A stretch of DNA of 64,000 nt from Schmidtea polychroa (lineage: Eukaryota): NCBI GenBank assembly GCA_044892525.1, contig CM097885.1, forward strand, positions 144,646,001 through 144,710,000. Direction: 5' to 3'. Both the position numbers and the translations under genes were made by a program. The notes beneath the pieces were generated by a model, which made no database searches, was not told the origin of the DNA, and saw nothing but the letters and a program-made list of their open reading frames with translations. Below, piece by piece: positions 29,552 through 43,434 of this stretch. Positions within the stretch are counted from its first letter, which is position 1; every line of letters starts with the position of its first letter.

Positions 29552-32434
29552 ATGATGAATGTGGTAAAAACCGACGAGTATAAAGAAAAATTTAGAGGCG
29601 AACCGTTTAACGGGAATGCGAACAAGTTGGCAACGTTCATAACAAATTTTGAAGTCTATATCGATGTGTGCGGATGGACAGCGGAAGCAATTAGCAAACG
29701 AATGCCTCTGTTTTTGTGCGATAGCGCACTCGAAGTATACCTAGAAGCAAAAGAGAGGAATACGAAATTAGACAATTGGGAAAGCATCAAAACATTTTTG
29801 AGGAAAACCTTCGGAGCCAGCAAACCGATAAATCAAGCGTTAGGTGAACTGGCAAGTAGAAAACAAAGAGCAAACGAGTCAATAACGTTATACGCAAGCG
29901 AATTGCGAAGATTGGCAAAAAAGGCCATGAACGGAAACCTGCCAGAGGAAAATTTAATTGGTTATTTCATAGAAGGACTACGCCGAGAGGAGGTAAGAGC
30001 CTCGGTGGGATGTCAAATGTGTAAAACACTAGAATAGGCCATAGATTGGGCCACAAGATGCGAACTACACCTCCCAGCACAAATGAATGTCATGCAAGAG
30101 GAGGGAAGAATCGCATCAGCAACGGTGAAAACGGAAAGTGGAGATAATAACAATCACGAACCAAAGATGAATCAGTTTATACCAGGTGCGCATCAAATTT
30201 TCAAACCACCACAAGGACGATCAAACGGGAATAATAGTGAACGCAACAACTCGAACAATGGGAATAATTTTAATAATCGACGAAATACGAACGATAACAA
30301 ACAATGCCGAACATGCGGTAAACCAGGACATTGGGATAGAGATTGTTACCGAAACGCAAATTGCAATAGGTGTGGACGACGAGGACACACGGAAAATATA
30401 TGTCAATTGAGAGGATGTTTTAACTGTGGTCAACCAGGTCACATCTCAAGAGACTGTCGAGAAAGGGGCCAACAACAACGACCACCACAGCGAAATAATA
30501 ATTATGCACCAAATCCGCAACGACAAAGTAACCCCAGTGAGGGAAAACAAATGAATGTGATGCAAGAAATTTCACAAATGAAGCAGATGATGCAACAAAT
30601 GATGAGACCGAGACAAGAACAAGTACCACAACAAACTCAGAATATACGTATGATGAGGAGCACCGAAAATCTTAACAATTACGGAGTACAACAACATGCA
30701 CAAGAATGGCAAAGACTACAAGCTGAAGAAGAGAGAATAAAAAGAGAGCGAATTCAGCAGCGACAAGAACAACCATTACGAATAAATATGATGAGGATAG
30801 TAAAGGAGATAAAAGAGCAATATTGTTACAATTACGGTAAAAATCCAAGAGTTGTACCAATGATCGAACCAGAGAAACCGAAAGAAACAATTATAGAAAC
30901 CAAAAAGGAAAGCCCAACAACACCGTTAAAGGGAAATCAGAGAATTCAGAAAATATTTTGGAAAAAGATAAAAGATAAAATCGAAAGAGAAAATGAGAAA
31001 ACAAAAACAGAAGCAGAAGCGATAAATGAAGGAAACGAGAAACAAACTAGTCATTTAACCCATGAAATGGTACAGGAATTAGAATCGGAAGAATTAACGA
31101 TATTTGAGAATAAAAAGCTCAAGAAAGTACCAAGAATGAGAAATTTACGAATTAACATGATGAGGACGACAAAGAAGGTATTGTCAACAGACGACGATGA
31201 GGATAATGTGAGTAGCCTTGGTGGGGAAATATTACAGCTAAATGAAAATATCGAACAACTAAAGGAAAAAATCGGAGAAGAAGGAGATGAGAGTGAAAGC
31301 GACGTAACAAGCGAAAGTGAAGACGAAAATATCGAAACGAAATTGAGAAAAGAAAAAGAAGAAGCGATAAAACAAGTAAAAGAAATACTTCCAGTGGTGG
31401 TAAGAAACCAGGATTTCATTGACATCATACCATACAGACGCTTCATACAAAAGATAATGAAACTAGAAAGAAACGAAAAAGATTTAATACCAAGCGAGGA
31501 GAAAGCGATAATAAAGAAGTATATGGAAAAAATGAAACAAGCAGAGACAACACGCTATGTAATAAAAATCGGAACGAGCAAAGGACTCGAGAGAATATGG
31601 ATAAAAAACACCGTTACAGACGAGCTTTTCGACTGGATCAGAGAACATTTGGGCAGTTCAAGAAAGAAAGAATACCTGTATCAATATCAAGGAGAACAAA
31701 TCAAACCAGACATGCACCTAATAGATGCATTAATCTGGCCAGGAGAAACTCAAATATTGAAGTTGCATAAAGAGAAGCAACCAGCCAATGTTCACGAATG
31801 GGCTAAAGACGCCAAGGCTGAATACGATTTTAATATCAAGCTGAAGTTGGAACAACTAAAACAATGCACTTTAAGACGAAATCTAGATAAATTAATCAAA
31901 CAAATCCAAGAACAAGTTGAAGATAACTGGGACTTGCTCATAGCAAGACGAACTCCAGATATGCATGAACTAATGAGCCGACTGCGAGATACAGAATTGC
32001 TCCGAATGAGCGATTGGAGAACCATAAATTTGATCCACAAATATGGAAGATTAAAAGAAACGCAACGGCAGAGATTGGAAATAACCATATGGCTACCAAA
32101 CGAAGAGAAACGACGAATAAAAATGAGTAACCAGAGTACGGTGGACGATTTAGTATCAAAAATAAACCAAGAAATAACGGAAAAAGTTCGAAGCGAGAGC
32201 AGCGATGGTATGATAGATGATGTAGTCATGATGTACGATAAAATAATATTACGGGCTGAAGACGACACCTCGTTAAGCGAAATGGGAATGTGGGATAATC
32301 ATCAAATAATTAGAATATTGCCCATGGACGAATTCCGAACAAGAGATGTAACCTACCAGAAAGAGATACGGGACAGGATGAAAACGCTATACCAAAAATC
32401 AGTAGAGATAATTGAAATTCATCAACAGTGGTAA
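29552..32434 (+). CDS. gag: Gag region of the polyprotein: capsid-like domain, 3 CCHC zinc knuckles (30305-30457), Gln-rich/acidic linkers, two ubiquitin-like domains; one in-frame TAG at 30035
   Basis: PFNGNANKLATFITNFE...YASELRRLA...FIEGL is typical of retrotransposon Gag. Knuckles CRTCGKPGHWDRDC, CNRCGRRGHTENIC and CFNCGQPGHISRDC. ORFs 29552 and 30083 share a frame, separated by one stop. The frame is open upstream to ~29231, so the true start is uncertain. Confidence 0.88.
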
Positions 32435-34340
32435 AAGGAAAAGGAACTACGAGGGAAAATAAAGAAACTGAGTACTAGATCTTGCAGACGAACTCCCTGG
32501 GAAAGGATGTGGAATGCAGAAAATAAAGAGTGGGAAGTCAGGAAAGGAATTTTCGTAGAAACAGACATTGGCGAGACCGAAAGTGAATCAGAAGAAGAGG
32601 AAGACGAACCTCCAAAATACGAAGAGGAAGAGACAGAACCGGTATCGGACGAGGAAAGCGAAACGGACGTCACGTCCGAAAGTGAAACGGAAACCAGACA
32701 TATTCATGCGATGAGAAAGAAGGAACGCGAATATGCCGATATGGACAGCGAGGAAGCGATGGAAGCTCGAGAACGAGAAGAGAAGGAAAGATATAAACAA
32801 TTAGGTGACATCTTAGCAACGGGAGCAAAAAATCAAAAACGACAAGTAGTAGCATTAGCTACCATCATCCTAAAGACATCAGAGAACATCCACAATCTAA
32901 GAGAGATGGCGAAGGCGATAGAGGAATACCGACAATATAACGAATGGTATCCAGAGCAGCTGGAACAAATTATTAGAAAATGGAGAAACCAAGAGTGGGC
33001 ACAAGATACCCAGGAAAGGTATCGGATCCGAGTCAAATATCCTGACAAAAGTATCGAGGAAATAGAAGTACATCCAACAACAAAGATCAGAGAGTTAAAA
33101 AAGAAACTAGCATATGAAACCCCATTTCACCTACAACTATTCGGCAAATCATTAGATGATAATGCAGATGTAGGAATAACACCCATGAGATTAGGGGAGA
33201 TCAATGTATTGACAATGGCAGAAACATTGGGAAAACCAATCAAAAGGAAAAGTAAATCCGGTAAACCCACGAAAGGTAGCTTGAGTACACCAAGCCCTGA
33301 CAAGGTGCCAAGCAAATCAAATGAAACCGAAGAAATCGAAGAGATCATATTAGAAGACAGCGATGAAGGAGCTGGGGAAAGATCACCAATTCTGGTGAGA
33401 TGGCCGACAGGGGTCGAAATATGGACAACAAGCCAACCGTCAACTAGCTATCAACAACCAAATAAGCTGAACATAGAGGAGATTGTCGATAATACGACAG
33501 AAACCGAAACTGACGAACAATTTCAACGACAAAAAGGATCAACGAAAGTAACACCAGAAGGTCAAACAGACAAAATAATAGACGAATGGAATGAGTGGCT
33601 GAGAAACAACGATAGCTCATTGCCAAGAACAGATAACGATAGAAACCCGAATTATGAAACGACAAGAGAAGCTGGAACAATGATGGAGAAACGGGCAAAA
33701 GGAAGACCCAAGAAGCAAGGAGAAAAACCAGAATTTAAAACCAGAGAACAGTTGAAACAAGAACAAGGACAAGTCAGATTAGAGAAACTGGATAAAATAG
33801 TATGGGACCTAAAAGAAGCCCAACCAACAATCGAGAGAGGTGAAAAATGGATACGAGAGCTAGTAAAGGATATGTTAATAATAACAAACCCGCAATTGAG
33901 ACGGTTATGGCAACGAAAAGTAGCAAGCGTAGACGCCAGACAACTATGGAATGTAATATCCGGAGTAATTCCGAAATTGATCAAAGAAAAAACGAAAACC
34001 ACGAAAACAGATTGGGAGGAGACAAGGAAGGTAATTGAACAATTAACCGTAAACGCGAACGACGACGAACATCATCTAGTGGTATTAACGTATTTAATGT
34101 ACAATTTGATGGGATTAGCAGCGAGGAAAATACCTAACAAACAATTTGCAAACCACGTTGAAATGACGGTGACAATCATTGAAAATACAATCGAACCACA
34201 TATTATCCGCGCCGGAGGGTGGAAAAGGCTTATACAAGCACCACGAAAAAATGAGCAAGAAAGATCAATGCAAATCAGGTTGAAGAAATTACTAAACGAA
34301 CTAGAATGGGAATTACCAATGAAAGATCCCGCCAGTAGAA
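32435..34340 (+). CDS. Polyprotein accessory segment: acidic linker, ubiquitin-like domain (33017-33217), Bcl-2-like domain (~33780-34240)
   Basis: Same frame as gag after a single TAA (32432). IRVKYPDKSIEEIEVHPTTKIRELKKKL...LQLFGKSLDD fits a UBL pattern. TIEPHIIRAGGWKRLI fits BH2. Confidence 0.72.
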
Positions 34341-43100: not shown

Positions 43101-43434
43101 AGAGATAGCAAGAATACGAGGAATGATAAAGGGAAATGGCAAAGGCAGTAATCTAAAAAGCACAGAGGCAATACCAACAATAACGAACAAGGAAAAATCG
43201 GAAATTATAAGCGTAAAACAGATGATGTGGATCAGCGGTATAATAATAGTAGGGGCATTTTTAATCATAACGGGGGGAACAATAAAAATAATCAAAGATA
43301 GACGGCATCGCGGAGAACTAGAGATGGCCAGAATCAGAAATTTTCAACATCGTGTAAAACGACCAAGTAATATCAAGCAGGAACAGTGGGTGGAGGCCTG
43401 GAATGCTCAGCGCCCTCCAAACTCACGTATATAG
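40191..43434 (+). CDS. Post-integrase extension of the polyprotein: two ankyrin-repeat clusters and a C-terminal putative type I membrane protein
   Basis: In frame with integrase. ANK motifs GDTPLH, GYTPLMIAA and KNALHHA (40441-40720), then RTPLQQA, GETAMMYAA and GNSTMDWA (41470-41720). Signal-like MMIMILVLTMVEMITA (42433-42480) and TM MMWISGIIIVGAFLIITGGTI (43222-43284). Confidence 0.8.

Follow-up and report, generated by a model that had tools for sequence, protein, structure and literature searches.

Can an envelope gene be carried in one reading frame between gag and pol, and how would such a chain be arranged across a membrane? This question is raised by positions 29552..43434 of a 64,000-nucleotide stretch of Schmidtea polychroa DNA (the window), for which a preliminary description had proposed a ~4,600-codon polyprotein broken by three stops and a frame shift. 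The window element is a giant Ty3/gypsy LTR element of Burro type that inserted recently and has since decayed, the Burro-type assignment being made by architecture and published descriptions of Burro. The observation itself is real and the architecture is already published; our additions, all computational, are a predicted four-segment topology, a predicted second membrane protein behind the integrase and the proposal of a non-AUG start. A single ORF would fix Gag, Env and Pol at 1:1:1, with cytosolic proteins on both sides of a luminal one. Abundant Burro transcripts are reported in planarians in two studies (PMC6884822, PMC8532177).

A single reading frame with four private breaks

The element is larger than the region originally singled out, spanning 30,322 nt from LTR to LTR (Table 1). 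Its LTRs show 13 mismatches in 4,034 columns, a GAAT target duplication flanks it, and the Ty3/gypsy (Metaviridae) traits are present: PR-RT-RH-IN order, a GPY/F integrase, TG...CA LTRs, a primer binding site and a short target duplication. The sequence resembling a primer binding site is presumably similar to the 3' end of tRNA-Pro. An ORF of 252 codons inside the 5' LTR (24966-25724) gave no Pfam match. Along the chain, the Pfam order is Retrotrans_gag, zf-CCHC, Monjiviricetes_fusion, RVP, RVT_1, RNase H, integrase and ankyrin.

Table 1 Features of the window element, in window coordinates.
Feature	Position	Strand	Remarks
5' LTR	22233..26267	+	4,035 nt, TG...CA ends
Primer-binding-site-like sequence	26275..26292	+	follows 5' LTR
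Accessory ORF	26772..27257	+	C-terminal C3HC4 RING; without BIR; T-rich AG directly 5' of ATG
Tandem repeat	27854..28272	+	116-nt unit x 3.6; in leader
ATG-free leader	28947..29551	+	starts near acceptor-like T-rich AG ending at 28973
Gag N-terminal extension	29240..29551	+	~104 codons, in frame, constrained; candidate ACG start at 29240
Gag capsid	29552..30079	+	Retrotrans_gag match 29702-29986; first ATGs 29552/29555
Break 1, stop TAG	30035..30037	+	private; capsid region, before zinc knuckles
Nucleocapsid	30305..30457	+	three CCHC knuckles
Accessory region	30550..34357	+	coiled and acidic stretches, ubiquitin-like units, Bcl-2-like unit
Break 2, stop TAA	32432..32434	+	private to window copy
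SP1, internal signal-peptide-like segment	34358..34408	+	abuts predicted mature Env N-terminus
Env ectodomain, class III fusogen	34409..36088	+	Monjiviricetes_fusion; chuvirus G / herpesvirus gB fold
Break 3, stop TAG	35879..35881	+	private; inside Env ectodomain
TM1 anchor, weakly hydrophobic helix, cytosolic tail	36089..36712	+	TM1 ~36089-36150; tail ends at candidate protease site 36704
Aspartic protease	36746..37021	+	DTG intact
dUTPase-like domain	37106..37342	+	weak Pfam match (E 0.16); placed as in Burro
Reverse transcriptase (YIDD) and RNase H	37685..38737	+	
Break 4, frame change	39005..39016	+	private; ATA-repeat run between RNase H and integrase
Integrase	39067..40200	+	HHCC, DDE, GPY
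Ankyrin-repeat blocks (two)	40400..41800	+	
SP2, internal signal-peptide-like segment	42433..42480	+	shortly past candidate protease site 42391
Predicted second type I membrane protein	42481..43434	+	Cys-containing ectodomain, TM2 ~43222-43290, basic tail; stop 43432
Accessory ORF	43604..43963	+	119 aa
Accessory TRAF-like ORF	44053..45441	+	Pfam matches to RING and MATH; middle rich in Cys/His; T-rich AG 5' of ATG
Accessory ORFs (three)	45663-46700, 46876-47577, 47633-48259	+	two hydrophobic segments in 47633-48259
3' LTR	48521..52554	+	4,034 nt

A frame check bore out that the ATGs at 29552, 30083, 32507 and 35954 share a common frame and that one stop separates each pair of ORFs, as the frame 29231-39013 holds exactly TAG 30035, TAA 32432 and TAG 35879. 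The shift placed in the ATA-repeat run was likewise found, the frame closing at TAA 39014 and the integrase frame comprising 38989-43434, and the proposed length agrees with the ~4,626 codons counted from ATG 29552. The four ATGs do not hold as gene starts; stops fall within domains: 30035 in the capsid region and 35879 in the Env ectodomain, where the Pfam fusion profile picks up at position 480 immediately past the stop. The frame itself, described as beginning at 29552, probably opens upstream, given the constrained codons before the first ATG.

In a comparison with other copies from the same genome, as the preliminary description had suggested, the stops and the frame change vanish, each site being open in all 29 other copies. 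Four of ten copies run through 29552-43434 with no stop and no phase change, and other copies are broken at different positions. The dN/dS values were 0.00-0.20 in 17/17 regions of the ORF (Env 0.03; SP1 0.05; C-terminal module 0.17-0.20; region upstream of SP1 0.03-0.09), and in a sister family open frames of at least 4,770 codons hold 60 of the 94 env matches. All four breaks thus reflect decay peculiar to the window copy, and the family encodes a single ORF of ~4,700 codons (~4,630-4,730 in the window element), with purifying selection along its whole length; the chain Gag-accessory-Env-Pol-ANK-membrane protein, originally attributed to an ancestral element, is the family state.

Many gag-pol borders are crossed by readthrough or frameshifting, a general precedent for reading the breaks as sites of programmed recoding by which the Gag:Env:Pol ratios are set. 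The copy comparison refutes this reading and leaves it practically no probability, as none of the four breaks recurs in any other copy, the breaks of other copies lie in different places, and two of the stops fall within folded domains. It is also very improbable that the breaks are assembly errors in an intact copy: the frame change does sit in a short repeat run, but the other three are in-frame stops and not indels, their number agrees with the age from LTR divergence (1.3 stops expected, 3 seen; P=0.15), and other copies carry stops of their own.

Env and its predicted signal and topology

Env is a class III fusogen. Its Pfam match (E 1e-45) and a profile match to gB (E 4.5e-4) are accompanied by a structure model with a pLDDT of 88.8, whose top fold matches are chuvirus G (E 5e-32) and herpesvirus gB (E 4e-14), and the cysteine pattern is intact. 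PDB sequence searches with Env alone and with the Bcl-2-like piece of the accessory region yielded no meaningful match. This Bcl-2-like unit (34007-34222) has a Pfam E of 0.019, below the cut-off, with E 0.00096 at the matching place of a relative. Ubiquitin-like units lie at 33011-33250, at 32078-32332 (weak) and at 31556-31780 (recognised by eye only), and a single-sequence fold of 32900-34330, covering ubiquitin-like and Bcl-2-like units, reached a pLDDT of 37.

A hydrophobic segment immediately precedes the xYDC/xFDC Env start in 14/14 long relatives, and in stand-alone glycoproteins the equivalent segment is an ordinary N-terminal signal (16/17). Env followed by protease occupies a single ORF in nine of the 16 relatives scanned, joined by RT and RNase H in five, and Gag motifs were found upstream of Env in three. 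The relatives compared were drawn from a representative search and from the element's own genome. Of the four hydrophobic segments described below, SP1 is the weakest, and it opens with Met, as it does in 5/14 relatives.

The Met codons opening SP1 in the window copy would suit a scheme in which the single ORF is real and most Env (or Env-Pol) is made from a subgenomic RNA or an internal start near SP1, SP1 then being an ordinary N-terminal signal and the full fusion a minor product. The apparent use of splicing for the accessory ORFs points the same way, as does the 1:1:1 output that a single ORF would impose, which most LTR elements do not make. We nevertheless consider it rather unlikely: a sequence scan found no acceptor-like site throughout 29972-36020, leaving the 4.4 kb preceding SP1 free of T-rich acceptors, Met is absent 16-35 residues before Env in 9/14 relatives, and the region upstream of SP1 is equally constrained.

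Hydropathy with a translocon-scale cut-off yielded exactly four segments in the whole chain, in the order SP1, TM1, SP2, TM2; the helix behind TM1 (KD 1.6) is hydrophobic enough for a possible second pass. This alternation of signal and anchor predicts that Gag and Pol are cytosolic. ER threading through internal signal peptides with Pol on the Env tail, as envisaged in the preliminary description, is a prediction that fits both hydrophobicity and conservation. The product would be a polytopic polyprotein, with Gag and the accessory domains made in the cytosol, translocation started by SP1, and the Env N-terminus generated by signal peptidase. Because TM1 would stop transfer, the PR-dUTPase-like-RT-RH-IN-ANK part would be cytosolic and initially attached to the Env tail, and SP2 and TM2 would then yield a smaller second membrane protein.

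A second type I membrane protein is predicted behind the integrase in four of the six relatives reaching that far; a sister-family copy, L173, has SP2, no TM2, and then a weak exonuclease match. Our literature searches did not find such a post-integrase second surface protein, if real, described. As a lead only, ESM Atlas gave top scores of 0.82-0.86 for the C-terminal module, including some fibronectin-III membrane proteins. The post-integrase ectodomains of relatives fail to align and their cargo is heterogeneous, which would be compatible with Env and the C-terminal module being cytosolic or degenerate cargo, with no co-translational insertion and the element spreading solely intracellularly; literature searches likewise returned no reported particles or fusion activity for Burro. 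The low dN/dS of Env, its intact cysteines, its confident class III fold and the signal segment retained in all 14 distant relatives make this distinctly improbable.

Proposed processing and start codon, and accessory ORFs

The cytosolic parts of the proposed polyprotein would be cut by the element's own protease at a short recurring motif; among the candidate cuts are one that would separate the Env tail from PR and one a short way ahead of SP2. The motif pattern gives no site immediately before SP1 and none in family C, and in family B one match falls in the part predicted to be luminal.

The ATG-free gap of 608 nt is the longest of the internal region, the runner-up being 267 nt. Because this AUG-free leader and ~104 constrained codons precede the first ATG, we propose a non-AUG (ACG) start, which the two together suggest. 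The invariance of the ACG is not significant on its own, 6/17 NCG codons being invariant, and family B has no ACG at the equivalent place. A literature search on non-AUG starts returned nothing on these elements, judged by title. Separately, a donor-like GTAAGT at 29268 was considered as a splice donor and rejected, being kept in just 12/29 copies.

More weakly, we infer that the polyprotein mRNA may be spliced onto the AUG-free leader and start at the near-cognate ACG, and that most accessory ORFs may be expressed from spliced RNAs of their own; an acceptor-like site stands at the ATG in five of the six accessory ORFs checked. BIR was absent from the 12 window ORFs scanned by Pfam. Sister family B has an ORF with BIR and RING, and a MATH that lies in frame.

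Together, the locus is best explained as a decayed Burro-type copy with GAG-ENV-POL order and a gB-type Env, from a family with a single ORF encoding an ER-threading, protease-cut polyprotein, a joint reading to which we assign a probability of about 0.75. More tentatively, and with the odds against it, Burro-type elements may be flavivirus-like enveloped retroviruses with a spliced AUG-free leader, a non-AUG polyprotein, four ER crossings and two surface proteins, the class III fusogen plus a variable partner encoded behind the integrase that is possibly fibronectin-III-like and could act in attachment, Pol being brought to the budding site by an Env-tail tether rather than a Gag-Pol fusion. 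Exact, testable peptide and RNA coordinates follow from the conserved signal inside the chain, the parity of the four segments, the candidate cut sites and the proposed ACG start.

Comparison with known systems

The structural polyproteins of flaviviruses and alphaviruses alternate signal and stop-transfer segments and are cut by host signal peptidase on the luminal side and a viral protease in the cytosol. The likeness is an analogy of working only, without homology: their fusogen is class II, whereas that of the window is class III, and the window element, unlike these viruses, is reverse-transcribing and integrating. The nematode elements of Sacco and colleagues reportedly have a continuous ORF. 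According to the available text of a later survey, these endogenous retroviruses are of Ty3/gypsy type with an RNA-virus-type glycoprotein before pol, and their hosts are nematodes (Sacco et al. 2022, J Gen Virol, via PMC13524379).

That 2026 survey by Chary and Hayashi covers GAG-ENV-POL order across phyla (Nematoda, Bryozoa, Platyhelminthes), reports that such elements do not form one clade, and states that gB-type ectodomains lie either between a signal peptide and a TM or between two TMs (PMC13524379). The window Env shows the gB-type errantivirus pattern by fold, profile and hydropathy, being a class III fusogen before pol with a predicted signal peptide and TM on either side. The nearest element listed there, Platyhelminthes_Rhabditophora_Smed_errantivirus_5, shares GAG-ENV-POL order and a gB-type Env; its Env fragment is close to the window Env by eye, with a 13-residue identical run and about half of the residues identical, and is a distinct sequence. 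The available text says nothing on how the polyprotein is arranged across the membrane, on the C-terminal module or on the start codon.

The implied novelty of the design does not stand, an in-frame env between gag and pol being already in print (PMC6431247; PMC13524379) and described for planarian Burro in 2019 (Arkhipova and Yushenova, PMC6431247 section 7). Burro and GYPSM1 are gypsy-like LTR elements of >30 kb with one ORF of ~4,900-5,100 aa, in which the Burro env lies between BCL2 and PR and matches mononegavirus glycoproteins; Burro cargo moves between ORFs, and BIR is noted in Burro1-4 (PMC6431247). The same paper makes no mention of signal peptides, and its Burro section none of a post-integrase membrane protein or a non-AUG start. 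MATH/TRAF is a separate downstream ORF in the window, is listed among the GYPSM1/Burro1 motifs and forms an upstream ORF in D. tigrina (PMC6431247). BIR, in contrast to Burro1-4, was not found in the window's family and is present in sister family B; because it is missing, and is treated as variable cargo moving between ORFs, we file the element as Burro-type and not as Burro1-4. The ubiquitin-like unit upstream of the Bcl-2-like one (E 0.0024) and the dUTPase-like unit between PR and RT (E 0.16), both sub-threshold, are placed as in Burro/GYPSM1. The window element has in common with Burro/GYPSM1 a length of >30 kb with multi-kb LTRs, one giant ORF, a Retrotrans_gag Gag with three CCHC knuckles, ankyrin repeats, TRAF/MATH cargo, and an in-frame env that lies between a BCL2-like unit, here a weak match, and PR.

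Reading frame and setting of the element

The four ATGs that the preliminary description had assigned to one frame were confirmed to share it, with exactly three stops (TAG 30035, TAA 32432, TAG 35879) between 29231 and 39013, near which the frame switches within an ATA-repeat run to that of integrase, ending at 43434. Pfam searches yielded the order Gag capsid, zinc knuckles, Monjiviricetes fusion glycoprotein, protease (PR), RT, RNase H (RH), integrase (IN) and ankyrin. The stops are located within domains and not at gene borders, the fusion profile continuing immediately past 35879, and PR, RT, RH and IN retain their catalytic motifs. 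The ORF is carried by an LTR element of 30,322 nt, flanked by a GAAT target duplication and inserted into Bel/Pao-like sequence, with 13 mismatches over 4,034 columns between its LTRs.

Coordinates of the LTR element and neighbouring sequence
Feature	Position	Basis or remark
5′ LTR	22233–26267	4,035 nt
3′ LTR	48521–52554	4,034 nt
ORF in 5′ LTR, 252 codons	24966–25724	T-rich AG adjoins ATG; no Pfam match
Shorter ORF in 3′ LTR	51253–51864	
Last accessory ORF	47633–48259	signal-like N-terminus, second hydrophobic segment
Frameshifted Bel/Pao element	52555–57418	Peptidase_A17 and RT
694-nt direct repeat, 98.7%	20956–21649; 57719–58411	
ORF running into ubiquitin domain	21191–22207	Pfam E 1e-21
Host exons, minus strand	3814–16138	by eye from translations
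Near-perfect long inverted repeats	60060–60582; 19475–19583	259-nt arms; 54-nt arms
263-nt tandem array	19808–20589	

The giant element lies in the gag region of the Bel/Pao element. The direct repeat encloses both and holds an ORF start, which in the left copy runs on into the ubiquitin domain; the repeats are possibly the LTRs of the outer element or a duplicated carrier. The host exons resemble a JmjC/ARID/PHD (KDM5-type) gene and a kinesin-4-type gene, and the last accessory ORF may encode a third membrane protein.

Decay of the window copy and constraint among copies

Each break had 319–658 candidate matches, of which 40 were scored; we read the best 29, apart from the window copy, that were recovered as loci. 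All 29 were open at each stop site, and all 29 crossed the RH–IN junction in phase with no stop, the copies being related and the counts not independent. All four breaks are decay of the window copy. The LTR divergence predicts ~1.3 new stops since insertion vs the three seen (P = 0.15).

The whole span was read in ten plus-strand copies as two separate stretches per copy, leaving out L132, a stretch with no partner; in one pair the coverage reached 9,780 of the 13,883 nt. Neither stop nor phase change was present in four of the ten, the remainder being broken at other positions. Pairwise dN/dS among the ten was 0.00–0.20 in all 17 regions (Env 0.03; SP1, the predicted signal before Env, 0.05; C-terminal module 0.17–0.20; pairs not independent), which, together with the four open copies, upholds the proposed single ORF from Gag to the membrane module as the unbroken state. 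Of 94 env matches scored in a sister family from this genome, 60 fall within uninterrupted frames no shorter than 4,770 codons. The feature is real and was correctly read, the three stops and the frame change being private to this copy of a family-wide frame.

Env, predicted topology and processing

Searching with the Env piece by phmmer matched 765 proteins. Among 16 long matches scanned, nine carry Env and then protease in one chain, five of these nine also RT and RNase H, and three have Gag motifs upstream of Env. The predicted model of the Env piece before TAG 35879 (pLDDT 88.8) found its best fold matches in chuvirus glycoproteins (E 5e-32) and herpesvirus gB (E 4e-14), the latter also matched by a profile (E 4.5e-4); this Env is a class III fusogen. 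Five related proteins (P0003, P0004, P0005, P0019 and, weakly, P0002) have at least two tandem aspartic-protease-like domains after Env, and another, P0088, places a chuvirus-type fusion glycoprotein behind immunoglobulin domains in a single 1,000-aa protein.

On a translocon scale, the chain has just four 15-mers with scores under 1.0 (34358, 36089, 42433 and 43225), and all are conserved in the 8–10 copies aligning without gaps. As these segments alternate signal–anchor–signal–anchor (SP1, TM1, SP2, TM2), Gag and Pol would be cytosolic, with Pol left on the Env tail. SP1 immediately precedes the xYDC Env start; its position is taken by a hydrophobic segment in 14/14 relatives that extend upstream and by a conventional N-terminal signal in 16/17 stand-alone glycoproteins, the exception looking truncated. 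These rows were picked for matches starting where the query does. In the window, as in 10/10 relatives with TM1 located (of 11), the helix behind TM1 is less favourable than TM1 itself; because of this poorer score we provisionally read it as membrane-associated and not spanning.

A post-integrase signal-like segment recurs in 6/6 relatives reaching far enough (P0003, P0007, P0012, L166, L170, L173), followed by a clear TM in four, weak ones in one and none in L173, where a weak DEDDh-type exonuclease match lies behind the segment. The post-integrase ectodomains of relatives did not align to that of the window, family B reaching only E 0.001; fibronectin-III likeness, suggested by structure-atlas matches and by-eye motifs in P0003 and P0007, is a lead only.

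Processing would occur at five-residue motif sites near domain borders. The pattern, drawn from these same sites, occurs 11 times in the window chain vs 1.4 in shuffles. These sites include the borders between the Env tail and PR (36704) and between RH and IN, and a position a little ahead of SP2; none falls in predicted luminal parts. In family B the unaltered pattern gave 6 matches vs 0.5 in the Gag–Env part (0/500 shuffles) and 2 vs 0.55 in the Pol part (47/500), one family B match falling in predicted lumen; four pieces searched of family C gave none.

Candidate start, putative splicing signals and known elements

No ATG-free gap in the internal region is longer than the one of 608 nt that ends at 29552 (the next reaches 267), and in 7/7 sister-family upstream stretches from three lineages the longest such gap likewise ends at the polyprotein's first ATG. 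Across 29231–29551, pN/pS is 0.36 in frame vs 0.91 and 1.12 in the two alternative frames; the frame from 29240 on is conserved in 30/30 copies, and in 12/30 the spacing back to the preceding stop is not a multiple of three. An ACG at 29240 recurs in 29/29 other copies (purine at −3 in 29, G at +4 in 27); 6/17 NCG codons are as invariant, and family B has no ACG at the matching position. We consider this ACG a candidate non-AUG start, graded below the topology and processing readings. In family C, an LRS-type basic motif lies upstream of the first ATG.

An acceptor-like site, its pattern drawn from the same copies, opens the ATG-free gap in 30/30 copies. T-rich AGs adjoin the ATG of 5/6 accessory ORFs checked and the pattern search found none between 29972 and 36020, which favours spliced RNAs for the accessory ORFs and an unspliced Gag–Env–Pol frame, as judged from sequence.

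The window feature is a decayed copy of an already described kind of element, to which a topology with four membrane passes, a second membrane protein and a non-AUG start would be testable, entirely computational additions. In the literature searched we found no paper on Burro topology, non-AUG start or particles; either the signal peptides or the C-terminal module may already be described in Grohme 2018 or Sacco 2022, or in their supplements. Burro is a recognised genome feature, transcribed and PIWI-controlled in planarians, according to PMC8532177, PMC6884822 and PMC11410931. Judging by its element family, we took the host as planarian-like. Burro/GYPSM1 exceeds 30 kb, with an ORF of 4,873 aa and Gag with three knuckles, ubiquitin-like, BCL2-like, env, PR, dUTPase-like, ankyrin and MATH domains (PMC6431247). 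PMC13524379 describes GAG-ENV-POL elements whose Env is of gB type from Nematoda, Bryozoa and Platyhelminthes and catalogues six S. mediterranea elements. Family B (L162–L167) carries MATH in frame within the polyprotein and separate TRAF and BIR-RING ORFs downstream, and family C (L168–L173) a shorter Gag–Env–Pol ORF, often of 3,334 codons. By eye, S. mediterranea element number 5 of that catalogue is nearest to the window element. Family B is nearer than the window's family to the published Burro1 domain list.
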